A stretch of 63,858 nt of DNA, the filler included, from Sandaracinaceae bacterium (lineage in GTDB: Bacteria > Myxococcota_A > Polyangia > Polyangiales > JADJQN01): NCBI GenBank assembly GCA_947483975.1. It is 2 parts of 2 records of this genome, joined end to end, with 100 filler letters (N's around TTAATTAATTAA, not from the genome) between each part and the next. Parts side by side here need not be neighbours in the genome. Positions count along the whole stretch, not along the records: positions 31,993 to 63,858 come from CANKOL010000018.1; 1 more part is not named here. One strand, given 5' to 3'. This document shows, piece by piece, positions 22,716 through 58,064 of the stretch. A model generated the notes under the pieces. It saw only the letters and a program-made list of their open reading frames with translations, did no database searches and was not told the DNA's origin. The stretch's first letter is position 1. Each line of letters begins with the position of its first letter. A program made the translations under genes and the position numbers.

Positions 22716-22790
<75 letters not shown>

Positions 22791-31892: not shown

Positions 31893-31992
31893 NNNNNNNN
31901 NNNNNNNNNNNNNNNNNNNNNNNNNNNNNNNNNNNNTTAATTAATTAANNNNNNNNNNNNNNNNNNNNNNNNNNNNNNNNNNNNNNNNNNNN
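31893..31992. other. Artificial contig-joining linker
   Basis: 44 N + TTAATTAATTAA (stops in all six frames) + 44 N. Confidence 0.97.
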
Positions 31993-43928: not shown

Positions 43929-45779
43929 ATGAAGGCGCTCATCAAGGTCGGCTACGCGTGCAACGAGCACTGCACGTTCTGTCACACGATGGATGTGCGG
44001 CACATCGACGGCGACGAGGCCGAGACGCACGCGAAGATTCGCCGCGCCAAGGCGCTCGGGCACACGATGGTCGTGCTCTCCGGCGGCGAGGTCACCATCC
44101 GCCCCGAGCTTCTGCGCTGGGCGGCGCACATCGCGTCCCTCGACCTCGACCTCGGCCTGGTCACGAACGGCCGGCTGCTCGGCTACGACGACGCGCTCGA
44201 GAAGCTCGTCGCGCAGCGCCTCCGCTACGTCTACATGTCGCTGCACGCGGGCACAGCGAAGGTGCACAACTCGCTCATCCGCGCGGACGGCTTCGACGAG
44301 GCCCTCCGCGCGATCCGCAACGTGCACGCGCGGCCCGAGATCGAGCTGACGATCAACTGCGTCGTGACGCGGCAGAACGTCGAGCAGCTGCGCGCGCTCG
44401 TCGACCTGCTGCTCCCCTTCGAGCGGCTCGTGCTGAAGTTCTCGATGCTCCAGCCGAAGGGCGGCGGCGACAGGCTCCTCGAGCAGCTGGTGTCGCGCGT
44501 GACGCACGTCGCCGAGCGCGTCCGGGACGCGATGGAGTACGGCCAAGCGCAGGTGCGCGCGCGCGGCGCGAGCGGGCCCTCGTTCACGCACGACGGGCTC
44601 CCGCTCTGTTTGCTGCCGGGGCACGAGGGCGCCTTCGACGACCTGCGCACGGACGGCTTCGCGACGATGGTCGAGGTCGGCGAGCCGGACTTCTTCCCGG
44701 TCGATGACCACGACAAGGTGCAGCCCGAGGCGACCTGCGGGGCGTGCGCGCTCCGTGGACCGTGCCCCGGCTTGTTCCGCGGCTATCTCGAGGCGTTCGG
44801 CTCCGACGAGCTGCGTCCGCCGCCTCCGCAGGCGCGCTCGAACTCGTTTCACTACGTGCTCGAGACCCTCGTCGCGACGGACGCCGCGCCCGGCTTCTGT
44901 CCGCTGCGCGACGGCGAGGAGGGCGTGACCCCCTGGGATCGCGGGCGGCATCTCTTCGTGCGCAACGGCGCCCGCATCGCCCGCTATCGCACCGAGACTC
45001 GAGACTTCGCGGACGTCGAGCTCGTGCGCGTCAAGCACGAGCTCGCGCAGGTCTACGCCGATGTGTCGAGGAAGGCCGCGCCCGACGACTTCGCCCGCGA
45101 CCTCGTGCAGCTCACGCGGAGCCCGCTCTGCGAGGGCTGTCCGGTCGAGCGGACCTGCACCGGGATGTTCGAGCCGCGCCTCGAGGACGTCTTCGGGCGC
45201 GATGACGCCGTCGTGCGGACGCTCCTCGGCGCGCTCGAGGGGCGCGTGCTCGACGTCGGCTGTGGTGAGGGGCCCTATGACGAGGTGCTCGCGCCGCGGG
45301 CGCAGGCAGGTGCCATCGAGTGGGTCGGGCTCGAGCCGGACGCCGCCGCTTGCGCGCGCCTCCGGGAGCGACGTCCGTGGGGCGAGGTGCGGCAGGGCAC
45401 GGCGGAGGACGCGCGCCTCGAGCCCGAGTCGTTTGACCACGTCCTGGTGCTGCGGAGCTGGAATCACCTCGCCGATCCCGTCGCCGCCCTCACGCGCCTG
45501 GTGTCGGCGCTTCGGCCGGGCGGCACGCTCACCCTCGTCGACAACGTCGCCTTCGCGCTCGCGCGCACGCGGCCGCAGGCGCGCCTCGCGGAGCGCTCGA
45601 CGGCCGCGTTCGAGCACCATCGCAACGACGACGCCACAGCCGCGGCGCGCCTCGTCGAGCAGGCGCTCGCGACGGACGTTCGGTTGCGCTTGAGGCCGCT
45701 CGAGCGCCGCGACGTAGGGCCCGGCACGTCGAATCAGTGGCTTCTGCGCTACGAGCGCGCCCTGCCCACGCTTGTGTAA
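43929..45779 (+). CDS. Radical SAM protein fused to a C-terminal class I SAM methyltransferase
   Basis: CNEHCTFC, SGGE, VTNG, SLH; two CxxC-x5-C-x-G motifs; VLDVGCGEG...FDHVL...WNH. Confidence 0.9.
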   Translation: MKALIKVGYACNEHCTFCHTMDVRHIDGDEAETHAKIRRAKALGHTMVVLSGGEVTIRPELLRWAAHIASLDLDLGLVTNGRLLGYDDALEKLVAQRLRYVYMSLHAGTAKVHNSLIRADGFDEALRAIRNVHARPEIELTINCVVTRQNVEQLRALVDLLLPFERLVLKFSMLQPKGGGDRLLEQLVSRVTHVAERVRDAMEYGQAQVRARGASGPSFTHDGLPLCLLPGHEGAFDDLRTDGFATMVEVGEPDFFPVDDHDKVQPEATCGACALRGPCPGLFRGYLEAFGSDELRPPPPQARSNSFHYVLETLVATDAAPGFCPLRDGEEGVTPWDRGRHLFVRNGARIARYRTETRDFADVELVRVKHELAQVYADVSRKAAPDDFARDLVQLTRSPLCEGCPVERTCTGMFEPRLEDVFGRDDAVVRTLLGALEGRVLDVGCGEGPYDEVLAPRAQAGAIEWVGLEPDAAACARLRERRPWGEVRQGTAEDARLEPESFDHVLVLRSWNHLADPVAALTRLVSALRPGGTLTLVDNVAFALARTRPQARLAERSTAAFEHHRNDDATAAARLVEQALATDVRLRLRPLERRDVGPGTSNQWLLRYERALPTLV

Positions 45780-45839: not shown

Positions 45840-48173
45840 ATGTCACGCACCCTGAGATCCATCGTCGGGCTCGGCTTCACGCTCCTCGTCGGAGCGTCCA
45901 CTTTTGGCTGTGCGGGTGGCTCGAAGCCCCCCGTCAGGCCGGGCGATGGAGGCGTGCGTGATGGCAGCCTCGACGGCAGCGCGGACGGCGCCGTCGACCT
46001 CGGGCCCGTGGAGGTCGATGCAGGCGCCGATCTTGGGCCGACCACCCGCGTCGGTACGTGCGAGTCGTGCGAGACGAGCGCCGACTGCTACCCGAATTCC
46101 TACTGCGCTCTGCTGACGACGGGCGGTCGCGCGTGTCTGCCGAGCTGCAACCCCGACCTGCCGATGTGTCCCGCCGGCTTGAACTGCACGCTGAGCGCTG
46201 CGCTCGAGGTCGACGAGTACGTCTGCGCGCCCCTCGGCGGGCTCTGCTGCGTCGACGAGGACCGCGACACCTACGGCCAGGGCGTGGGATGCGTGGGGAG
46301 CGACTGCGACGACGCCAACGCCGACATCAACCCCGCGGAGCCCGAGCGCTGCAACGGCATCGACGACGACTGCGATCTGGCCGTCGACGGGACGATGACC
46401 GACTGCGTCACCGGCATCTGTCGCCCGAACGCGGGCATGCCTGGTACCTATGAAGACATCCGCAGCGCGATGTGCACGGACGCGATGTGCACGAGCGGCA
46501 CGCTGACGTCCTGTGGGCTCTTCAACTGCGAGCTCGGCATGGGCCTCGGGAGCCGCTGCGCGCTCACCTGCCCGTCGACCGCCACGGACAACACGGGCAA
46601 CGAGCTTTGCGTCGACGCTGCTCACTGTGACGGAACTGCGTGCCTCGCGGACCAGCCGAACGGCGGCGTGTGCGACGAGGACTCCGACTGCTCGGCGGGC
46701 CACTGCGACAACGGCTTCTGCTGCGCCTCGGGGCAGTGCTGCAGCACCGCGACGGACTGCAGCGGTGGCACTGGCGCCGTCTGCGAGACTCCCCTGACCT
46801 GTCAGGGCACGCGCGGGGACATCACGTGCGAGTCCAACATCTGCGTCATCGCATCGGGGGTGCCGGACGACAGCGCGTGCGACAGCGGAACCATCGCGCG
46901 CGACTGTGGCCTCTTTCTGCCCGTCTACTGCTCCGGCGCGGCCACGCAGACGGCCCCCGCCTGTGCGACGAGCTGCACGACGGACGCTGGCTGTATCCCG
47001 ACGGGCCACTGTGAGGTCGGCGTCTGCGCGCCGGATCGTCCGCCGGGCGGCTCCTGCTCGCGAGTCCAGGATTGCCAGGACGGCAACTCCTGCGTCGATG
47101 GCGTCTGCTGCATGACCGCGTGCTCGGGCCAGTGCGAGCGCTGCAACGCCCCCGGCACGGCCGGAACCTGTACGCCCGTCGGGGGCGGCCAAGACCCCGA
47201 CTTGGAGTGCCCGGGCTTCTCCTGCTCCGACTACTACGCGGGCTTCGACGGGCTGGGCGCTTGTCATCGCCGGGCACCGATCAGCAACGACGCCGCCGTC
47301 TGCAACGGGGCTCGCGCCTGCCTCACGCCCGCCGAGCTTTGCGCCGTGTCGCCCGCCGGCACAGAGGTGCAGATCGACTGCGACGACGTCTGCCAGAGCA
47401 CGACCGCGGGCACCTGCAACGGCACGACGCCGGGCGCGTGCACCGACTCTCCTCCCGGAAGCCAGACCTGCGGTTTCGGCGCGTGTATGACCACGTCGCC
47501 GCGCTGCAACGCCGGCACCCAGGTCACGTGCATCGCGGGGATGAGTTCGCCGGAGGCCTGCAACGGCATCGACGACGACTGCGCCGGCGGCGTCGACAAC
47601 GCGCCGGTCGTGTCGATGTGTCCCGCGACCGCGAACGTCGCGACCACGTCGTGCGGCGGAGCGGCAGGCTGCGCGATCGCCGCCTGTAACTCGAACGCCG
47701 TCGACATCGACGGTGCCTACGCGAACGGCTGTGAGTGCGTCAACGAGGGCAACGGCAACGCGTGCGGCTCTGCGACCTCCCTCGGCGCCATCGGAGTCGG
47801 CGGTTCGGCCAACACGCTGACGAGCTCCATCGCCGTTTCGGGCGCCAGCGATTACTTCTACGTCACGTTCCCGGCGACCGGCTCGCCTGGAGGCGGCACC
47901 CCACACGTGCGCTTCACGCGCAACGACGGCTCGATCTTCCGGTTCGAGATCACGAGCGGGTGCCCGTCGGCCCCGCTCCCATGCGGCATCGCAGGCAGCG
48001 GCGGAGTCGCCACTGGCCGTGACGACTGGTCGTTCGTCGACGACCAGGCCGCCCCCGGCCCCAATCAGTGGAACGTGCGTAACACGGCGTGGCCGGCGGC
48101 CGTCTATGTGCGCGTGTATCGCACGACCTCCGGGGCGAGCTGCAGCCAGTATCAGTTGACCGTCACGCGCTGA
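45840..48173 (+). CDS. Cys-rich surface lipoprotein, paralog of 22959-27206
   Basis: Lipobox-like TFGC, DGG linker, DCDDANADINP / CNGIDDDC motifs; shares the N- and C-terminal domains of the giant protein; GGAGG RBS. Confidence 0.85.
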   Translation: MSRTLRSIVGLGFTLLVGASTFGCAGGSKPPVRPGDGGVRDGSLDGSADGAVDLGPVEVDAGADLGPTTRVGTCESCETSADCYPNSYCALLTTGGRACLPSCNPDLPMCPAGLNCTLSAALEVDEYVCAPLGGLCCVDEDRDTYGQGVGCVGSDCDDANADINPAEPERCNGIDDDCDLAVDGTMTDCVTGICRPNAGMPGTYEDIRSAMCTDAMCTSGTLTSCGLFNCELGMGLGSRCALTCPSTATDNTGNELCVDAAHCDGTACLADQPNGGVCDEDSDCSAGHCDNGFCCASGQCCSTATDCSGGTGAVCETPLTCQGTRGDITCESNICVIASGVPDDSACDSGTIARDCGLFLPVYCSGAATQTAPACATSCTTDAGCIPTGHCEVGVCAPDRPPGGSCSRVQDCQDGNSCVDGVCCMTACSGQCERCNAPGTAGTCTPVGGGQDPDLECPGFSCSDYYAGFDGLGACHRRAPISNDAAVCNGARACLTPAELCAVSPAGTEVQIDCDDVCQSTTAGTCNGTTPGACTDSPPGSQTCGFGACMTTSPRCNAGTQVTCIAGMSSPEACNGIDDDCAGGVDNAPVVSMCPATANVATTSCGGAAGCAIAACNSNAVDIDGAYANGCECVNEGNGNACGSATSLGAIGVGGSANTLTSSIAVSGASDYFYVTFPATGSPGGGTPHVRFTRNDGSIFRFEITSGCPSAPLPCGIAGSGGVATGRDDWSFVDDQAAPGPNQWNVRNTAWPAAVYVRVYRTTSGASCSQYQLTVTR

Positions 48174-48240
48174 AGTGGGTGGGCGCAGGTGGCGCCCCCT
48201 CCGCCACGCTTCTGCGCACCGCCCCCATGAGATTCCCGAA

Positions 48241-48777
48241 ATGACGTCTCCGCTCCAAGGTATTCCGTCCGAGCTCGCGGCCGCCGATCTCAACTCAGGC
48301 GCCGTGCAGCTCAGCGTCGATGCGCAGCTCTATCCGCTCGGCGCGATCTACGCTGCCTCCTACGTCTTTCTCGACCGCTGTTATGTGCTGCTCGATCAGC
48401 CCGCTGAGCACCGTGTCCGCGTCACCCTGACCCCGAAGAAGGGGCCCGCCGACGAGGCGCTGCTGCGCGCGTTCGTCGGTGAGTTCTCGAACGAGCTCCT
48501 CTCGGCGGCCTGGCGGCAGCAGATCGCGCAGGAGAATCGTGCGGTCATCGAGATGGTCACGTCCCAGGCGATCTCGGCCGCGATGGGTCCGCCTTCGCTC
48601 GATGACCTCGCGGCGTTCGACTTCGGCGACGAGGCGTTCGAGGACCCGCTCGGCATCGCGATGAGCTGGGAGGAGAAGTACAAGAAGAAGGACCCCGCCG
48701 CCGCGACTGCTCCGGCGGGCGCTGAGACCTCGGCGAAGCCTGACACCGGCGCGCCCGAGCCCGAGGGCTCGCCGTGA
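48241..48777 (+). CDS. hxsD: His-Xaa-Ser system protein HxsD-like
   Basis: LYPLGAIYAASYVFLDRCYV...GEFSNELL...RQQIAQE resembles HxsD; located just upstream of the HxS-repeat peptide. Confidence 0.7.
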   Translation: MTSPLQGIPSELAAADLNSGAVQLSVDAQLYPLGAIYAASYVFLDRCYVLLDQPAEHRVRVTLTPKKGPADEALLRAFVGEFSNELLSAAWRQQIAQENRAVIEMVTSQAISAAMGPPSLDDLAAFDFGDEAFEDPLGIAMSWEEKYKKKDPAAATAPAGAETSAKPDTGAPEPEGSP

Positions 48778-48995
48778 CCGAGCTGCGACTGCACCGCTCG
48801 CTCTACGCCGGTACGGCGGTCGACGCGGCGGTGAAGACGTATGCGCGCTTCGCGGCCTTCGAGCTGGTCGAGGAGGCGACTCACTGGGTCGTGCGCGTCA
48901 CCGCGAAGAGCGTCGCCCGCGAGACGCAGATCGCCCACGAGCTCGCGAACTACGCTCTCGGTACGACCATCCGGGAGCGCGGAGCCACGCCCTAA
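48774..48995 (+). CDS. Second, minimal HxsD-like protein (73 aa)
   Basis: LYAGTAVDAAVKTY...HELANYAL parallels the upstream protein; GTGA overlap. Confidence 0.62.
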   Translation: MTELRLHRSLYAGTAVDAAVKTYARFAAFELVEEATHWVVRVTAKSVARETQIAHELANYALGTTIRERGATP

Positions 48996-49078
48996 CCGTC
49001 GCTCACCGCGCCGTGGTCGACGCCGCGAGCGAACATCTCACTCTCGAGGTCACCAACGCCGAAGTCAGTACCGAGCGC

Positions 49079-49108
49079 GTGACACGCCTATTCTTTTCGA
49101 TGTAAAGT
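49079..49108 (+). promoter_or_regulatory. Putative sigma70 promoter for the precursor peptide gene
   Basis: GTGACA-N18-TAAAGT in a locally AT-rich stretch; GGAG RBS before the ATG at 49135. Confidence 0.5.
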
Positions 49109-49134
49109 AACTTCCCACCCACTGGAGCACGAAC

Positions 49135-49422
49135 ATGGCAGGACCCGGCGTCAGCGGATCGGACGACAAGGCAGGCGACGATGAGCCCCTGCCAAGCTTC
49201 AAGGCCGACGTCTCAGGGACGCTGTCCGACGAGCAGCGCAGCGTCTCGGCGCGGGCGCTCTCGGCGGCGGACGATACTGTGAAGGGCGATCCAAGTGGCG
49301 CGCAGCGGAGTGGGCAGCACTGCTCGCACGGCTCGCACGGCTCGCACGGCTCGCACGGCTCGCACGGCTCACACGGCTCGCACGGCTCGCACGGCTCACA
49401 CGGCTCGCACGGCAGCTGGTAG
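49135..49422 (+). CDS. hxsA: His-Xaa-Ser repeat precursor peptide (HxsA-like RiPP precursor), 95 aa
   Basis: Acidic ~61-aa leader-like region, then HCS-(HGS)10-W-stop; RBS present; flanked by HxsD-like and radical SAM genes. Confidence 0.85.
49318..49416 (+). repeat. 9-bp tandem repeat encoding 11 His-Xaa-Ser units
   Basis: CACGGCTCG units; variants TCA and AGC are synonymous Ser codons; the first unit is CACTGCTCG. Confidence 0.95.
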
Positions 49423-50523
49423 TTGGCCTCCGGGGCTGACGTGGTCGCGCGCATCGTTCAACGGACGGGCGGGGGCAACGACGAGGGGGCGGCCGCGAGC
49501 ATCGATCAACGGATCGCTGCGAAGCGCGAGCGCGTCCACATCCTCACGGGTGAGGTCTGCAACAACAACTGCACCTTCTGCATGGAGGAGGATCGTGACG
49601 GACGCAAAGTCACGAACTCTGCCACCAGCGATGAGTCGGTGCGGTGGATCCTCGAGCAGAGCGCCGACTGCGAGGAGGTGTGCTTCACGAGCGGTGAGCC
49701 GACGACGAATCCTCGTCTGCCCGTCTGGGTGAAGATGGCGCGAGCGGCCGGCGCGCGCCGTGTGAGCGTGATGACGAACGGTCGCGCGCTCAGCAATGAG
49801 CGCTACGCGAAGGGCCTCGTCGCCGCGGGCATGAATCGCTTCTACGTGTCCATCCACGGGCACGACGAGAAGCTCCACGAAGGGCTCACGCGCACTCCTG
49901 GCAGCTTCGCGCAGACCGTGGCGGGCCTCGAGGTCATCCGCTCGTTGAAGCGCTACGGCGTCGACCTGCACACGAGCACGGTGGTCACGAAGCGGAACCT
50001 GCCGCACCTCGGCGAGATCTATCGTTTCCTCCGCGGTCATGGCGTCGACCAGGTCGTGTTCAACGTCATGCAGGCGAACGGGCGGGGCGACACCTATTTC
50101 GAGCAGCTTTTCCCCGCCTACACGGACATCGCGGCGACGGCTGAGGCGTTCTTCGCAGAGCAGGCTCTGCGCGCGAAGGCGCCGGGCGCGGAGGCGCGCA
50201 CCATGGCCTTCCTCGTCGATATCCCGCTGTGCACGACGACGCGCCTGCCCGACTTCAATCGCGGCTACGTCGAGTCCTACGTGCACTACGAGCCGCCGAG
50301 CGACGCTCACGCCGCGCTCGGCGTGGACCTCGCCGAGGCGCGCAGCGCGGGCTCCGGTGGAGGGCTCGTGCAGCTTCGCAGGAGCGACCTCGACGAGGCC
50401 GCGCGGCAAAAGCGCCCAGCCTGCGCGACGTGCAAGTACGACGCGGTCTGCGAAGGCGTGTGGGGAAACTACACGAAGCGCTTTGGGTGGGACGAGTTCG
50501 TCCCCGTCGCTTCGGGCGACTGA
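49423..50523 (+). CDS. Radical SAM protein (HxsC-like candidate maturase)
   Basis: [26 protein letters not shown]...[12 protein letters not shown]. Begins immediately after the precursor stop (start TTG 49423 or GTG 49441). Confidence 0.9.
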
Positions 50524-50579
50524 TTCCATCGATGGTATCCTCGGCCGGCACCGCCGACTCATTCGGTGAGGGAGGCCCC

Positions 50580-50924
50580 GTGGAGCGCGAACTTCTTCTA
50601 CGCATCTCGGAACAGCTACGTGACCTCGAGCGCCGACTCGCGGTGATCGAGCGCGAGCGCGGACCAGCCCGGGGGCGCCCCGAGGAGTCCCACGGCGGTC
50701 CCTTCGAAGGCGAGCCGTGGAGCGAGAAGCGCCTCATCGACCGCATCGTCGACCTCGTCGAGGAGCGCTTCGTGCGAGTGCTCTCGCGACACCGGCACGA
50801 CGCTCACTGTCACGAGTCGCGCGAGCACGGCGACCGGGGGCACGAGCCTCGCGGGCGCGATTTTCATGGTGGTGGCGGGTGTCGTGAGTGCGGCGACGCG
50901 CACACCGAACGCGCTCGCCGATAA
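50580..50924 (+). CDS. Small coiled-coil protein with a His/Cys-rich C-terminus
   Basis: GGAGG RBS plus GTG; LRDLERRLAVIE; HRHDAHCHESREHGDRGH...CREC. Confidence 0.6.
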   Translation: MERELLLRISEQLRDLERRLAVIERERGPARGRPEESHGGPFEGEPWSEKRLIDRIVDLVEERFVRVLSRHRHDAHCHESREHGDRGHEPRGRDFHGGGGCRECGDAHTERARR

Positions 50925-51019
50925 CCTCTCGCGTCGCGCCGTGTTTGCGGCGGAGCCCTCCGGCACGGTACCGTGTGCTCCGAGACAGGCGCGCTCGGCG
51001 TCTCTCTTCAGGAGTCCCC

Positions 51020-52042
51020 ATGCGTGCTGCGGTGCTGTCGTCGGTAGTGCTCCTGCTCTCGCTCGCGGCGTGCGCGAGCGGCGTCGGCGGTGAGGCTGAC
51101 GCCGCCACTCCGCCTGCGAGGGACCTCGGTCCGCGCGATGGAGCGGTCCGCGATGGCAGGGTGCCGACTGATATGTCGGGCGGCGACCTCTGCGTCGGCA
51201 TCGTGTGCATGGCCTTCGAGTACTGCGACCGGGGCTCCTGCCGCAACTACGGCCCGTGCACGCCCGCCGGCGGCTGCGCGGCGGCCAGCGACGTCTGTCG
51301 CAATCGCTACTGCGTGCCCCGCACGAGCGACGTCGATGGCGATGGCGTCACGGCCGACACCGACTGTGACGAGACCAACGCGATGATCGCTCCCGGCGTG
51401 CCCGACACCTGCAACGGCCTCGACGACGACTGCAGCGGCACACCGGACGACGGTGCACCGCGCGTGCTCTGCCCGGCCGGCATGGGGGAGTGTCTCGCGG
51501 GCGTGTGTGGCTGCCCGCCGGGGCGCTTCGATCTCGACGCCAACCCGGACAACGGCTGCGAGTGCGCCGGCGAGCCCGCCGACCGGGTCGGGTCGAGCTG
51601 CGCGGCGCCCCAAGATCTCGGCGACATCGCCGACACCCCTCAGACGCAGACCGTGTCGGGCAACGCGCTGCCGGTAGGGCGCGAGGTCTGGTACCACTTT
51701 CGCGGAGTCGACTCCGCGGACACGAGCTGCGACGCGCTCCACGTGCGCGTCCAGTTCCTCACCAACCCCGACAGCAGCTTCGAGTTCACCGTGTTCCGCG
51801 GCGCGTGCGGCACGCTCCCCGAGGGCTGCACCGACACGGGCTATCAGGACTTCTCGTTCTCTACCGACTTCTCGACTGGGGCCGGCTCCACCGGAGAGTG
51901 CCCCTGCACCGTCACGCCGACGGCCGGCGCGAACGTGTGCGGGGACGAGACCGCCGACTACTACGTGCGCGTGCGGCGCGTCGCCGGCGTGCCGGTGACG
52001 TGCGCGAGCTACTCGCTCGAGCTGTCCAACGGCGTGTACTGA
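51020..52042 (+). CDS. Cys-rich lipoprotein, short member of the same paralog family
   Basis: AGGAG RBS; lipobox LAAC; DCDETNAMIAPG, CNGLDDDC, NGCEC; C-terminal YYVRVRR...CASYSL. Confidence 0.82.
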   Translation: MRAAVLSSVVLLLSLAACASGVGGEADAATPPARDLGPRDGAVRDGRVPTDMSGGDLCVGIVCMAFEYCDRGSCRNYGPCTPAGGCAAASDVCRNRYCVPRTSDVDGDGVTADTDCDETNAMIAPGVPDTCNGLDDDCSGTPDDGAPRVLCPAGMGECLAGVCGCPPGRFDLDANPDNGCECAGEPADRVGSSCAAPQDLGDIADTPQTQTVSGNALPVGREVWYHFRGVDSADTSCDALHVRVQFLTNPDSSFEFTVFRGACGTLPEGCTDTGYQDFSFSTDFSTGAGSTGECPCTVTPTAGANVCGDETADYYVRVRRVAGVPVTCASYSLELSNGVY

Positions 52043-52048
52043 GCGCGG

Positions 52049-53824
52049 TCAGCGCGCCGCAGAGCTCGACGGCACGGGCTGCATGAGTTCGTAGCCGTGC
52101 GCCCGGACGTAGTTGATGTGCAAGCCGCTGCACGTGTCGACGTGCGCGCAGGGCTTGCAGCGGAGCGACTTCGTCCGGTAGCGCTCGAGGATGTAGCGCT
52201 TGGTGTAGCGGAAGATCTCGAGCTGACCGGCCGCGTCCATCATCGCCGTGTCGAGCACCTCGCGCTCCTCGCGCGGCGCTCGGCCGGTGACGCACGCGGG
52301 GACGCCTTCGACGGGCACTGCGGCCGTGAACGCGGCGAAGAAACTCCCTAGCTCCACGTCCTTCTCCCGGCACTCCGTCAGACGCTCGTAGGTCGGCTGC
52401 ATCAGGGTGAGGCGCGCGGGCACCGGGGCGAGCGTGAGGAGCCACTCCGCGGTCTCCTTGGAGAGCGCGACCTGCACCTCGAACTCTGCGTGGAGGGCGA
52501 GCATCGCCACCGCGTCAGCCGGGCGTCGAACGAGCACGCGCGCGAGGCGGCGGCCGTCGAGGCTGCCGTCCGTCGTGAGCGCGTCTGCGAGCCCCGCGTA
52601 GTCGTCGAGCTCGAGCTCGAGCTCGAGCGCGCTCGCGCCGGGGAAGCGAGGCAGCTCAGCGAGCGCTTGCCGGAGGCTCGGCGCCGCGACGCGCAGCGTG
52701 TCGGCTCCCGCCGCGACGGCGAGCTGCGCGGGGCTGAGCAAAGGCGGCCGCGCAGCGGCGCCGCCGGGTGCCATGGGCAGCCCGACGCGACCATCTGCGC
52801 GGCGCGCGCTCGCCGGATCGCCCCCGAACACCGGGCTCTGCTGCGCCTCGTACTCGGTGTCGACGCGCACGACCTCGAAGCGCTTCGTCGCCACGGTCTC
52901 GCCCACGGCGTCGAGCGTGTCGCAGAACTGCTCGAGGTAGCAGTACTTGCACCTCGCCGGATCGCGACAGTCGAGCGCGACGCCGTCGTTGAGCAGCGCC
53001 GAGAATTCCTGCCGCCGACCGCGGACCTCGTCGGTGAGCTTGTACGGGTCCTGAATGAGGTGCTCGAAGCCCTCGAGGTGCTTCGGCGGGAAGCGATTCA
53101 TCCAGAGGTGCACGTCGGGCCGCCGCGAGAATTCCAGGGCCTCGACGAGGTAGGGCTGCATCGCCTCGAGGTCGTAGAAGAGCGTGTCGCGCCCGTCGGT
53201 GAACGCACGCCCGAACGGCACGACCTGCAGCAGATCGAACTCGCGCACGCCCTTCTCGTAGAAGCTGCGGAGCATCTCCGGGACGTGCTTCACGTTCGCG
53301 CGGTTGATGACGATGTCGACGTTGACGATCGGGCGCCCGTCCGCGAAGACGTTGTCGAGCCCGCGCATCTCCTCGTCGAAGGCGCCCTGCACGCCGACGA
53401 GCGCGTCGTGGATGCGGGCATTCGGTCCATGCAGGCTGAACGTGATCTCCGAGAGGCCAGCGTCGAGGCACTTCTTCAGGAACGGCGCGTACATGAACAT
53501 CCGACCGTTCGTCACGGTCTGCACCTTCCGATAGCCCGCGAGCGCACCCAGCTTGATGAACGCGACGTAGTCGGGGTGCATCGTCGGCTCGCCGCCCGAG
53601 AGGATCAGCCGCTCGGCGCCCTGTCGCCGTCCCTCGAGGATCTGCTCTTTGATCTCCTCACGATTGCGGATCTCACCGTCGTGCGTATCCGAGTCGAGGC
53701 AGAAGACGCAGCGGTTGTTGCAGTCGTAGGTGAGGCGCACCCAGTTGCGCTTCTCGTGCGCCGCGTCCTCGTGTCCGCGGAGCTTGTCCGAGCCCGTCGC
53801 CGCCCGCGTTTCTTCAGAGAGCAT
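52049..53824 (-). CDS. Radical SAM protein with a long C-terminal extension
   Basis: CNNRCVFC, SGGEPT, VTNG, SLHG; internal CKYCYLEQFC; terminal VPAC...CKPCAHVDTCSG. Confidence 0.9.
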   Translation of the reverse strand: MLSEETRAATGSDKLRGHEDAAHEKRNWVRLTYDCNNRCVFCLDSDTHDGEIRNREEIKEQILEGRRQGAERLILSGGEPTMHPDYVAFIKLGALAGYRKVQTVTNGRMFMYAPFLKKCLDAGLSEITFSLHGPNARIHDALVGVQGAFDEEMRGLDNVFADGRPIVNVDIVINRANVKHVPEMLRSFYEKGVREFDLLQVVPFGRAFTDGRDTLFYDLEAMQPYLVEALEFSRRPDVHLWMNRFPPKHLEGFEHLIQDPYKLTDEVRGRRQEFSALLNDGVALDCRDPARCKYCYLEQFCDTLDAVGETVATKRFEVVRVDTEYEAQQSPVFGGDPASARRADGRVGLPMAPGGAAARPPLLSPAQLAVAAGADTLRVAAPSLRQALAELPRFPGASALELELELDDYAGLADALTTDGSLDGRRLARVLVRRPADAVAMLALHAEFEVQVALSKETAEWLLTLAPVPARLTLMQPTYERLTECREKDVELGSFFAAFTAAVPVEGVPACVTGRAPREEREVLDTAMMDAAGQLEIFRYTKRYILERYRTKSLRCKPCAHVDTCSGLHINYVRAHGYELMQPVPSSSAAR

Positions 53825-53870
53825 GGGGCAAGGATACCGGCGGCGACCCCGATCCGGTAGGATGGCGGCG

Positions 53871-56153
53871 ATGTCGGACCGAATTCGCGCGCTCGTGGTG
53901 CACCCGCCAACCACGGTGTCGCGCGACTTCATCGACTACCCGTACTTCGCGGACCTCGGCGCGGTGCAGCTCGCCGCCGTCCTGCGTGAGGCTGGGCACG
54001 AGGTCGCGCTCGCCGACGCCTACGCGTTTCCGTCGTCGACTCTGCGCCCGCGCGACGATGGGCGCCTGCACCTCGGCGCGCCGGTGGAGGAGGTCGTCGC
54101 TCGCGCTCGGGCCTCGTTCGGCGATGCTGCGCCCGGGCTCGTCGTCGTCGCGCTCACGCCGTTTCATCGCCCTCCCGCCCGTGACGAGGTCCTCGGCGAG
54201 GTGCTCGCGGGCCTCCGCGCGCTCTGGAGCGACGTGCCCCTCGTGCTCGCCGACTGCTACCAGTCTGGCCAGCATTACGTCGAGTCCACGGAGTCCGCGA
54301 TCTTCGGTTCTTACCCGGAGCTCGACGCGTGGGTGAAGTACGAGGCGGAGCTCACCGTGCCCGCGCTCGTCGAGGCGCTGAGCGCGCGGGGCGAGCGCCC
54401 GCGCGGCGCCCATCGCGGAGCCTCTCCGGTGCTCGACGCGCTGCCCTTTCCCGCGTGGGACCTCGTCGATCTCGACGCGTACTTCGCGTTTCACGCGCGC
54501 GTCGTGCAGCACCTCGGGCGCAGCCGCTGGGCGTTCCCCATCGACGGGCGCACGCTGCCGCTCCTCACCTCGCGCGGCTGTCCGTTCACCTGCGTGCACT
54601 GCTCCTCGAACCCGGAGCGCGCGCCCGGAGCGCCGAAGACGCAGCGCCGCTACTCGGAGCCGCGCCTGCGGGCGTATCTCGAGACGCTCGTGCGCGTGCA
54701 CGGGGCGACGCGCCTCGAGCTCCTCGACGAGCTCGTCAACGTGAACGAGCGGCACTTCGACGCCGTGCTCGAGCTCATCGACGAGCTCGGCGTGCGCTTC
54801 GATGTGCCGAACGGGATGCGCGCGGACTACCTCGAGCCGCGGCACTTCGCGCGGATGCGCGGCAAGGTCACGACGGTGAGCGTCAGCGCCGAGAGCGGCG
54901 TGCAGCGCGTCGTGACCGAGGTCGTGCACAAGCAGCTCGATCTCGCGTGCATCAGCGCCGCGGCGGAGTACGCGCAGGCGGCGCGGGTCCCGCTGATGAT
55001 CCACTGGATCATCGGGTTTCCTGGCGAGAGCGCGGAGGAGATCAACGGCACGCTCGAGCTCGCGCTCGACCTCTTCGAGCGCTTCGACGCGATCCCCGCG
55101 GTGCAGTTCGCGACGCCGCTCCCGGGGACGCAGCTCGCCGAGGGACGCGCGCTGCCGGTCGTCAGCGACTGGGGACCGGCGTTTCAGCGGGTCCCTTCGC
55201 AGCCCGGGATGTCGGTCAGCGCAGAGGAGCTGCAGCGCTTCAAGTGGACCTTCGATCAGCGCCTGCGCGCCTCGCGCGGGCCCGAGAAGCTGATCCTCAA
55301 CGTCACCTACGTCTGCAACAACCACTGCACGTTCTGCGCGGTCGGGACGCGCACGCAGGTGGACGGGGACTCTGGCCGTCAGCGCAACCATCTCCTCAAG
55401 TACCGACGCGCTGGCGTGCGCATGGTGGACTTCGATGGTGGCGAGCCGACGCTCCATCCGGAGCTGGTGCCGCTGGTGCGCTATGCGCGCCGGCTCGGCT
55501 ACGAGCGCGTCACGGTGACGACGAACGGCCGGCTCTGCGCCTACGACGCCTTCGCCAAGCGCCTCGCGACGAGCGGCGTGACGACGCTCCTCTTCAGCCT
55601 GCACGGGCCCGACGCGCAGACGCACGCGCAACAGGTCGGCGTCGCGGAGGCGTTCGATCAGGCCGTGGCGGGCATCGAGAACTGCCTGCGGCACGCGCCG
55701 CCCGGGGTCGAGCTCGGCATGAACGTCACGCTGACGAAGGGGAACTACCGCAAGCTCGGTGCCCTCGCGCAGCTCTGCTTCGACCTCGGCCTACGCTGGC
55801 TCAACATCCAGTTCCTCACGCCCTTCGGCCGGGCGACGCGCTCGGTGAACCCGGACACCCGCGACGCGGCCGACGTCACGATGCGCGTGATCGATGAGTG
55901 GAACGATCGCCTCCGCTTTCAGGTGATCAACCTGCCGTTCTGCTTCATGCCCGGCTACGAGAAGTACCTCACCGGGGACCTCGCCAAGCTCTCGCGGCAT
56001 ATGATCTTCGTGAACGACGAGGACGTGAACCTCGGCGACTATCTCGCCGCGCGCCGCAAGCACGGAGTCGAGTGTGCGTCGTGCCCCCATCGGGTGTTTT
56101 GCGGGGGATTCTACGAGCTCGAGGATGTCCCCGAGCCTCCCTGGCTGTTCTGA
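53871..56153 (+). CDS. Double radical SAM protein: cobalamin-dependent-type rSAM fused to an HxsC-like rSAM
   Basis: N-terminal LVVHPP...LGAVQLAAVLREAGHEV (B12-binding-like), TSRGCPFTCVHC, ESG, IIGFPGE, TPLPGT; then a second domain CNNHCTFC, GGEPT, TTNG, SLHG, CASCPHRVFCGG. Alternative start 53862. Confidence 0.9.
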   Translation: MSDRIRALVVHPPTTVSRDFIDYPYFADLGAVQLAAVLREAGHEVALADAYAFPSSTLRPRDDGRLHLGAPVEEVVARARASFGDAAPGLVVVALTPFHRPPARDEVLGEVLAGLRALWSDVPLVLADCYQSGQHYVESTESAIFGSYPELDAWVKYEAELTVPALVEALSARGERPRGAHRGASPVLDALPFPAWDLVDLDAYFAFHARVVQHLGRSRWAFPIDGRTLPLLTSRGCPFTCVHCSSNPERAPGAPKTQRRYSEPRLRAYLETLVRVHGATRLELLDELVNVNERHFDAVLELIDELGVRFDVPNGMRADYLEPRHFARMRGKVTTVSVSAESGVQRVVTEVVHKQLDLACISAAAEYAQAARVPLMIHWIIGFPGESAEEINGTLELALDLFERFDAIPAVQFATPLPGTQLAEGRALPVVSDWGPAFQRVPSQPGMSVSAEELQRFKWTFDQRLRASRGPEKLILNVTYVCNNHCTFCAVGTRTQVDGDSGRQRNHLLKYRRAGVRMVDFDGGEPTLHPELVPLVRYARRLGYERVTVTTNGRLCAYDAFAKRLATSGVTTLLFSLHGPDAQTHAQQVGVAEAFDQAVAGIENCLRHAPPGVELGMNVTLTKGNYRKLGALAQLCFDLGLRWLNIQFLTPFGRATRSVNPDTRDAADVTMRVIDEWNDRLRFQVINLPFCFMPGYEKYLTGDLAKLSRHMIFVNDEDVNLGDYLAARRKHGVECASCPHRVFCGGFYELEDVPEPPWLF

Positions 56154-56936: not shown

Positions 56937-58064
56937 GTGGTCTCGCGCGGCATCGTCACGTTGACGCTGGAGTGCCCTAACGCGTGCATCTTCTGCGCGC
57001 AGCGGGGACTCGCGCCGCGACCTGAGCGCTCGCTCGAGGACGTGCGCGCAGCGCTGCGCGCGCTCCGCTCGGAGCAGCAGAGCGTGGTGCTCGCGGGCGG
57101 TGAGCCGGGGCTCCTCGAGGCGCTCGAGGAGCACGTCCGCGCTGCGCGCGAGGAGGGCTTCCTGCGCGTCGGCGTGCAGACGAACGGTGCCGGGCTCGTG
57201 GATGTCGAGCGGCTGAGGGGCCTCGCCAACGCCGGGCTGACGGACGTGCACCTGAGCGTGCACGGCGCCGTCGCTGCCGTACATGACCATCACACCGGCG
57301 CTCCCCTCAGCTTCGAGCGCGCGCTCGCCGCGCTCGCCGCAGCGCGCGCAGCCGGGCTCTCCGTCGCCGTCAGCACGGTGCTCACGCGCTCGAATTTTCG
57401 TGTGCTCGACGGGCTAGCGACGTTGCTCGTCGCGCGAGGCGCGTCCGCGTGGTGCGTCTCGGTCCCCGTCGTCGCGGGGCGTGCACACGAGAGCTTCGAC
57501 CGCGTCGTGCCTCGCCTCGGGCTCGCGTTGCCGTTTGCGTTGCGGGCCCTCGTCGCCGCTCGGGCGCGGGGACTCGCGGCGTTCATCTCAGGAGCGCCGC
57601 TGTGCCTGCTCGGACCACACGGCGGGATGAGCGTCGTCGGCGCAGAGTCGAGGGCGTACGGCGCGCCCTGCGTCGAATGCCCTGCACGCGCGGCGTGCCC
57701 GGGCGTCGACGCGACCTACCTCGAGCGCTTCGACGGCGACGAGCTTGCGCCGCGCGGCACGCTCGTGAGTCCGCTCGCGGACGAATCAGCCCGCCGACAA
57801 GCGGCGATGTTCGTCGGTGCCGGTGAGCGGGCGCCACTGCAGGTGCGCGTCGCGGCGTCGTCTCCCGCCAAGGCGCGGCGCGCGCTGCCGACGCTCGGCC
57901 GAGGACAACCCGCCGCCGCCGAGGTCGGTCGCGGCGAGCGCCGTACGGGCGAGGCCATGCGAGCGCTCTTCCCGACGCTGTTCGCCGACCGCGAGCCGCC
58001 CGCCGCCGACCTCACGAGCGGACAGGCGCCCACGGACGACGGGGAGCGCGAGCCGAAGGACTGA
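56937..58064 (+). CDS. Radical SAM protein, divergent
   Basis: CPNACIFC, GGEP, QTNG, SVHG...HD; APLC...CVECPARAACPG. Confidence 0.85.
   Translation: MVSRGIVTLTLECPNACIFCAQRGLAPRPERSLEDVRAALRALRSEQQSVVLAGGEPGLLEALEEHVRAAREEGFLRVGVQTNGAGLVDVERLRGLANAGLTDVHLSVHGAVAAVHDHHTGAPLSFERALAALAAARAAGLSVAVSTVLTRSNFRVLDGLATLLVARGASAWCVSVPVVAGRAHESFDRVVPRLGLALPFALRALVAARARGLAAFISGAPLCLLGPHGGMSVVGAESRAYGAPCVECPARAACPGVDATYLERFDGDELAPRGTLVSPLADESARRQAAMFVGAGERAPLQVRVAASSPAKARRALPTLGRGQPAAAEVGRGERRTGEAMRALFPTLFADREPPAADLTSGQAPTDDGEREPKD

Follow-up and report, generated by a model that had tools for sequence, protein, structure and literature searches.

A His-Gly-Ser repeat peptide of a Sandaracinaceae bacterium as a probable substrate of the type-4 His-Xaa-Ser radical-SAM system

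What is made from a short gene that ends in eleven consecutive His-x-Ser triplets and a tryptophan, and is it the substrate of the radical-SAM enzyme encoded directly behind it? The question was raised by a locus in the window, by which we mean the whole stretch of 63,858 nucleotides analyzed here from a Sandaracinaceae bacterium. The window consists of two contigs of a metagenome-assembled genome (MAG; G000:C17 and C18), separated by an artificial spacer at 31893-31992, and the gene, hxsA4, lies on the second. The spacer is composed of N runs around TTAATTAATTAA, and genes on either side of it are not necessarily neighbors; the first contig carries a single tRNA-Gly(GCC) at 22716-22790. The first in silico description of His-Xaa-Ser (Hxs) systems dates from 2011 (Haft and Basu, cited as reference 10 in PMC9062424), and a function, that of the canonical form, was reported for one of them only in 2026 (PMC13128918).

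The hxsA4 gene and selection on its peptide

The hxsA4 frame extends from an ATG at 49135 to a TAG at 49420-49422, and its GC3 of 0.85 is similar to that of the adjoining genes. It encodes an acidic leader of 61 residues, and the peptide ends in QHCS(HGS)10W, i.e., 11 consecutive H-x-S units plus Trp. A first-pass annotation had described precisely this array and its terminal Trp, and we found its coordinates exact and its translation in agreement with ours. Tandem Repeats Finder reported a repeat at 49317-49413 with a period of 9, 10.8 copies, 94% matches, and a score of 173. The ten HGS units are encoded by CACGGCTCG (seven times), CACGGCTCA (twice), and CACGGCAGC (once), and all differences among them are synonymous, the serine codons being TCG in seven units, TCA in two, and AGC in one. 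Because short-read contigs from four other runs all stop within the HGS array, the count of 11 units is that of the MAG assembly alone.

A candidate promoter and ribosome-binding site of the gene's own had also been proposed, and both were recovered (Table 1). The sigma-70-like match ends 27 nt before the ATG and is the sole one in 48000-51200, with 1 found versus 0.1 expected from shuffled sequences. No terminator-like site was found 3' of hxsA4, where hxsC4 begins directly after the stop codon.

Table 1. Positions of the Hxs genes, their signals, and accessory radical-SAM genes in the window
Feature	Coordinates	Strand	Remarks
Accessory HxsC4-like radical-SAM + methyltransferase fusion	43929..45779	+	Orthologues in 25/80 loci
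hxsD (type-4 form, conserved C-terminal tail)	48241..48777	+	TIGR03976, 57.6 bits vs cut-off 50
hxsD-like	48774..48995	+	73 aa; 4-nt overlap with hxsD stop; NF038315, 76.1 bits vs cut-off 41
Promoter-like site GTGACA-18 nt-TAAAGT	49079..49108	+	Sigma-70-like; consensus match only
Ribosome-binding site GGAG	49124..49127	+	7 nt 5' of hxsA4 ATG; read from sequence
hxsA4	49135..49422	+	95-aa precursor; leader residues 1-61, core 62-95
Leader motif L19-P20-S21-F22	49189..49200	+	Most conserved leader block, P nearly invariant; alignment of 40 peptides
Core HCS-(HGS)10-W	49318..49419	+	Translation, Tandem Repeats Finder, unit comparison
hxsC4 (radical-SAM enzyme)	49423..50523	+	NF038332, 600.2 bits vs cut-off 500; directly after hxsA4 stop
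Accessory HxsC4-like radical-SAM enzyme	52049..53932	-	Orthologues in 4/80 loci
Accessory B12-type radical-SAM + HxsC4-like radical-SAM fusion	53730..56153	+	Orthologues in 6/80 loci
Accessory HxsC4-like radical-SAM enzyme	56937..58064	+	Orthologues in 18/80 loci

Among the GTDB species-representative genomes, 165 relatives of HxsC4 were found, and the 6 kb fetched around each of the best 80 served for the comparison of loci. These best 80 are all from Myxococcota (Nannocystaceae, Polyangiaceae, Sandaracinaceae, Minicystis, and MAGs labeled Archangium), and the type-4 system is mainly found in Polyangia-type members of this group. HxsC4 exceeded its cut-off in 46 of 301 genomes of the class and, in single copy, in 30 of 46 genomes of one family. 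An H-x-S array was present within 6 kb of HxsC4 in 57 of the 80 loci. Eight of the 23 loci that lacked an adjacent array were followed up by searching the entire genome, and HxsA4 was found above its cut-off elsewhere in all eight, adjoining HxsB in five of them; HxsB was likewise present in five of five further genomes. In every genome checked HxsA4 co-occurred with HxsC4 and HxsB, and with HxsD-type proteins as well, while their linkage varied.

Including that of the window, 59 peptides were compared, with two ORFs broken by N runs left out. The number of units ranged from 9 to 21 and always changed in frame. All 59 peptides contain the terminal Trp, which is the last residue in 58, and the C-terminal HGSW is exact in 57; one of the remaining two reads HGRW, and the other, from a Nannocystaceae MAG (L002:5590-7014), has no stop codon after HGSW and runs in frame into HxsC4, be it as a genuine fusion of precursor and enzyme or through an error of the assembly. 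In some genomes, HxsA4 occurs as two or three paralogues in tandem that differ in unit number (13 and 18, or 17 plus others; L070:5298-5942, L075:5304-5948, and L072). As their first unit, 44 peptides have HCS, 9 HAS, and 6 HGS. The single Cys, which the first-pass annotation had put forward as a candidate site for another enzyme of the locus, is therefore not conserved and is dispensable.

The remaining units proved far more uniform. In 63 array segments from the related loci and the window, 750 non-first units comprise 40 different 9-mers, all of which encode HGS. The 424 units that deviate from the majority unit of their own array do so by 1070 nucleotide differences, all of them synonymous, although only 7 of the 27 possible single changes to an HGS unit would be. 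On these sequence comparisons, selection is shown to act on the peptide: the array is under strong purifying selection and belongs to a real gene. The first-pass annotation had drawn the same conclusion from the ten units of the window, as opposed to a plain microsatellite. A non-coding 9-bp microsatellite within a spurious ORF would fit the many long spurious ORFs that high-GC DNA gives and the antisense ORFs that overlap hxsA4. It is at odds with purely synonymous variation in 750 units, in-frame changes of unit number, and conservation of the Trp and the stop codon, and the hxsA4 ORF in addition passes a curated family cut-off (see below); this reading is refuted as far as sequence can show, and we give it practically no weight. 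Comparison of repeat number and leader among orthologs, which the first-pass annotation had recommended, further showed the leader block to be conserved. Neither frame-breaking repeat variation nor loss of the peptide was found in orthologous loci, given that the eight array-less genomes searched all keep HxsA4. We are therefore almost certain that hxsA4 is a real HxsA4 precursor gene.

Family assignment and architecture of the locus

The 95-residue peptide matched the NCBIfam model NF038313 (HxsA4) with 63.3 bits against a cut-off of 55, its residues 19-95 aligning with positions 2-93 of the 93 in the model. All five type-4 Hxs models (HxsA4, HxsC4, HxsD-like, HxsD, and HxsB) exceed their curated cut-offs in the genome. 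By these matches, the peptide together with HxsC4, HxsD, and HxsD-like is a "type 4" His-Xaa-Ser system; it is not a new class, because NCBIfam already names HxsA4. The view of the first-pass annotation that a genuine precursor-like gene under selection adjoins a radical-SAM enzyme was thus borne out, but that the family had already been catalogued as HxsA4 had gone unrecognized. A full-text literature search returned no paper on HxsA4, HxsC4, or poly-HGS peptides.

Directly upstream of hxsA4 lie hxsD and hxsD-like. The frame of hxsD, for which we took the ATG at 48241 as start, is open from a GTG at 48175. HxsD-like is homologous to HxsD (hhalign, 90.5%; E = 1.4e-6). Alignment also revealed a nearly invariant C-terminal tail of type-4 HxsD proteins beyond the HxsD domain (GPPSLDDL..FDF..E.F.DPLGIA.SWEEKY), which was modeled with low confidence. 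HxsC4 contains the cluster motif CNNNCTFC (CX3CX2C) and, as judged by alignment, invariant cysteines at positions 87, 270, 334, 337, and 343, which would leave room for an auxiliary cluster. The canonical HxsC model TIGR03977 scored 82.6 bits on HxsC4 and did not reach its cut-off of 267.9.

Four accessory radical-SAM genes surround this cassette (Table 1). Counting orthologues at a minimum of 42% identity over at least 120 aa within 6 kb of HxsC4, we found at least one of the four represented in 38 of the 80 loci. For all four, the best NCBIfam match was HxsC4 at 87-112 bits, far under the cut-off, and they may plausibly serve as tailoring enzymes. The true start of the B12-type fusion is probably internal. 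Further radical-SAM genes occur in related loci, one of them fused to a peroxiredoxin (L007:2-1498) and one at L013:1-1719. Two Cys-rich lipoproteins, which share a C-terminal domain and possess lipoboxes and a MopE-type "putative metal-binding" motif, flank the cassette (45840-48173 and 50888-52042). They were considered as members of the system and rejected; since their orthologues recur in only 1-2 of the 80 loci, they are probably bystanders. No protease or transporter conserved in the cassette was found.

In its full form, seen in 30 of the 80 loci, the order is HxsD, HxsD-like, HxsB, HxsA4, HxsC4. HxsC4 is accompanied by HxsA4 only, in one to three copies, in 21 loci; it stands alone in 20 and forms an HxsD-HxsB-HxsC4 group in 3, and the remaining 6 loci are cut by contig ends or inverted. 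The usual site of HxsB is therefore between HxsD-like and HxsA4, but in the present genome the gene is located on a different contig, C115. With HxsD, HxsD-like, HxsA4, and HxsC4 and no HxsB between them, the locus of the window is the only one of its kind among 81. The junction from HxsD-like to hxsA4 without HxsB is real: HxsD-like, the intergenic DNA, and the leader were bridged unbroken by a 1798-nt contig (run X3) and by a 700-nt contig from a different study (run X4). When compared by eye, the intergenic DNA before hxsA4 was not alignable with that of two other loci (L004 and L037).

The HxsB on C115 is the sole one of the genome, scoring 537 bits with TIGR03978 against a cut-off of 370. 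Its identity to cassette HxsBs amounts to 65-69%, and HxsC4 is related to its orthologues in the same range. Because the MAG is 81% complete and consists of 524 contigs, C115 is assigned to the same organism by binning alone. On C115 (L089, 10574-13275), HxsB stands behind a radical-SAM gene whose product shares 31% identity with HxsC4 and scores 162 bits with the HxsC4 model, below the cut-off; neither HxsD nor HxsA4 is present on this contig, which ends 370 nt past the HxsB region. In five other genomes, HxsD and HxsD-like precede HxsB. The opposite split was observed in another genome (L099; G008:C2:694066-697296), where the HxsA4 with the leader most like that of the window, also with 11 units, is encoded beside HxsB and HxsC4 lies on another contig. 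Evidently, Hxs parts function in trans, with fluid linkage among them. Since HxsB is outside the operon in a manner unique among the 81 loci, the system here could alternatively be rearranged or partly decayed. The window offers a natural example in which, of HxsC4 and HxsB, only the former stays beside the peptide and the two HxsD-type proteins.

Predicted leader recognition and a proposed route of maturation

An alignment of 40 leaders showed an acidic N terminus followed by [LIV]-P-x-[FY] and then L-x3-[QE]-[RK]-x-[IVM]-[STA]-x-[RKN]-[AS]-x3-A-[DE]. This conserved consensus, LPxF...L...QRxISxRA...AD, is succeeded by a variable linker and then by the core, and from its sequence the leader-core build resembles that of a RiPP precursor.

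To which partner the leader may bind was approached by structure prediction. A complex of HxsD (residues 1-150), HxsD-like, and HxsA4 (residues 1-70) was predicted. The best of three controls scored 0.02 and the complex itself 0.66, a mark that 116 of 157 solved complexes attained, as did 2 of 215 mismatched pairs; the score is the model's own confidence, and our prediction, with its own alignments and three chains, lies outside the calibration set. At least 58% of the contacts were common to the complex runs, and the pLDDT of the partners was ∼50. Confident contacts were made by leader residues 12-26, above all L19-P20-S21-F22-K23-A24, and are predicted to involve residues 22-26 and 44-64 of HxsD-like and residues 41-45 of HxsD. 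The predicted surface of HxsD-like includes its most conserved positions E56, N59, L62, G63, and L64. Replacement of HxsD in a control abolished the score. These models support binding of the LPxF motif to the HxsD/HxsD-like pair, and the window thereby yields a defined prediction of recognition, namely leader residues LPSF together with the HxsD-like helix (E56, N59, L62, and G63).

The HxsD model (pLDDT, 82.4) consists of four strands, a short helix, and a long helix. A comparison of HxsD and HxsD-like with solved structures by sequence gave no match below an E value of 0.01. Fold matches of HxsD were weak (E ≥ 3.6e-3) and pointed to small dimerizing alpha/beta folds of Rpb11/RpoL-, Pcc1-, YbjN-, and secretion-chaperone-like types. 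They hint that HxsD and HxsD-like may form a dimerizing adaptor. A PqqD-type recognition element was considered for HxsD and rejected by fold.

Taken together, we consider it very probable that hxsA4 encodes the substrate of a type-4 Hxs radical-SAM maturation system of Polyangia-type myxobacteria, and its modification by HxsC4/HxsB, as a separate point, likely. In the route that we propose, the LPxF motif of the leader would dock on a heterodimer of the paralogous HxsD and HxsD-like proteins and so present the repeat core to HxsC4, which is encoded next door and probably co-transcribed. HxsB would act in trans, in the present genome from another contig. Each His-Gly-Ser unit may then receive the same radical-mediated modification, probably via the His imidazole and the Ser side chain, to which the clustered HxsC4-like paralogues (the radical-SAM/methyltransferase fusion, the B12-type radical-SAM enzyme, and others) could add further ones. 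Subsequent removal of the leader would leave a leaderless, His-rich, repetitively modified peptide. The HxsC4 model (pLDDT, 86.6) tied in fold comparisons by Foldseek and VIA-align with GDGT-MAS, SuiB, BlsE, viperin, MoaA, SkfB, and anSME at Z scores of 18-20; because the fold ties with so many radical-SAM enzymes, no chemistry can be read from it.

Alternative products and comparison with known systems

The chemistry that had been suggested beforehand was that of triceptide enzymes such as FxsB, by which each H-G-S would become a cyclophane. In this form, a ring would be closed from His C2 to Ser C-beta in every unit, giving a rigid ladder of 11 rings; it is a sub-case of the maturation set out above and not exclusive of it. 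The three-residue period with an aromatic residue first and with invariant H and S is in line with such rings, and triceptide synthases that act on HAA, HTK, and HNR motifs are reported to join His C2 with the C-beta atom two residues further on (PMC11499958). HxsB, moreover, is a SPASM-type radical-SAM protein, with a weak SPASM Pfam match (E = 0.008) and full-length likeness to SPASM maturases. The maturases themselves argue against it, as models of cyclophane synthases scored far below their cut-offs on both HxsC4 (GrrM/OscB, 37.4 of 310 bits; AmcB, 40.4 of 425) and HxsB (YhhB, 47-49 of 445 bits; AmcB, 49-51 of 425; GrrM, 42.7 of 310), and the FxsB model was absent among the best 25 matches listed for them. 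In addition, the sole modification measured in an Hxs system, on an SHRSS motif, amounts to +8 Da ("+C/-4H-type"; PMC13128918), whereas a cyclophane would give -2 Da, and the triceptide paper PMC11499958 makes no mention of the Hxs family ("hxs" occurs 0 times). FxsB-like partners were thus replaced by HxsC4, HxsB, and HxsD in our interpretation, and the His-Ser cyclophane, while chemically conceivable, was left unsupported: we hold a plain cyclophane to be an unlikely form of the modification, and the complete ladder of such rings to be similarly doubtful. At the other extreme, the peptide could be an unmodified His-rich metal-binding or storage tail, linked to radical-SAM genes by coincidence. 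With a His in every third position, the peptide could plausibly present an array of metal ligands, and the MopE-type lipoproteins flank the cassette. Against this stand the co-occurrence with HxsC4 and HxsB in each genome checked, the predicted docking of a conserved leader on HxsD/HxsD-like, and the rarity of orthologues of those lipoproteins in related loci, so that we regard a coincidental linkage as highly improbable.

Of the possible functions, phage defense has a precedent. Canonical HxsABCD is described as an anti-phage system that blocks entry of phage DNA and depends on each of its HxS repeats (Li et al., Nat Commun 2026; PMC13128918). According to the same source, HxsC binds HxsD, maturation of HxsA is radical-SAM dependent, and HxsA undergoes N-terminal processing, carries the +8-Da modification mentioned above, and acts in the periplasm. 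Matured HxsA4 might be exported and act as an effector in the same way, as its maturation proteins are homologous (HxsB, HxsC-like, and HxsD) and its occurrence is patchy, HxsC4 being above cut-off in only a fraction of the class. The peptide itself offers little to match: Pfam returned only a collagen-like low-complexity hit and no peptidoglycan-binding domain, a hydrophobic signal-like segment was not evident in the translation, the canonical HxsA model gave no match at E ≤ 0.01, and the repeats contain no basic residues, X being Gly in all non-first units. PADLOC gave only generic viperin-like radical-SAM matches, HxsC4 was not found in the plasmid and phage collections searched (E ≤ 1e-20), its single-copy presence in 30 of the 46 genomes of one family also speaks against such a role, and the neighbors are metabolic and signaling genes rather than defense genes. 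We therefore doubt that HxsA4 is an anti-phage effector, and for the product of Hxs-directed maturation we consider metal binding, or some other extracytoplasmic role, more likely than phage defense. The most far-reaching version of our proposal, which we consider improbable as a whole and offer as speculation, is that the (HGS)n core serves as a template for processive, identical radical modification by HxsC4/HxsB, either a His-Ser cross-link or a carbon-bridged "+8 Da" type, of which canonical HxsA provides the one example. This would yield a ladder-like polymer of 9-21 modified units with a Trp cap, made through a new leader receptor in which HxsD/HxsD-like, not a PqqD-type RRE, reads LPxF, and its role would be other than phage defense, e.g., metal handling.

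The radical chemistry of the canonical system is presented as unsolved in PMC13128918, because HxsA is insoluble and modified at one site. HxsA4 would be a convenient substrate for solving Hxs chemistry, since it is short, carries its own His tag, and repeats the target motif 9-21 times, by which a mass change per unit would be multiplied and easily seen.

The type-4 set is known as database annotation (NCBIfam), and the build of the peptide described here matches that of 58 other peptides. Triceptides made by HaaB, HtkB, and YhhB on His-first motifs (PMC11499958) likewise have a repeated three-residue motif with His first, a leader-core organization, and radical-SAM maturation, and the triceptide-type Aromatic-X-X motif is present in the HxsA4 core as ten H-G-S and one H-C-S. 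Unlike in triceptides, the maturases of HxsA4 do not belong to those families, the mass shift of the (canonical) Hxs system differs, and the cross-link is hypothetical here. Canonical HXS systems, 99.7% of which occur in Pseudomonadota with the gene order D-B-C-A (PMC13128918), resemble the present one in that two radical-SAM enzymes accompany a small HxsD protein and a substrate with HxS repeats. In contrast to them, the system of the window combines a substrate of 95 aa, 11 uniform units ending in Trp, and a second, HxsD-like protein in a myxobacterial host.
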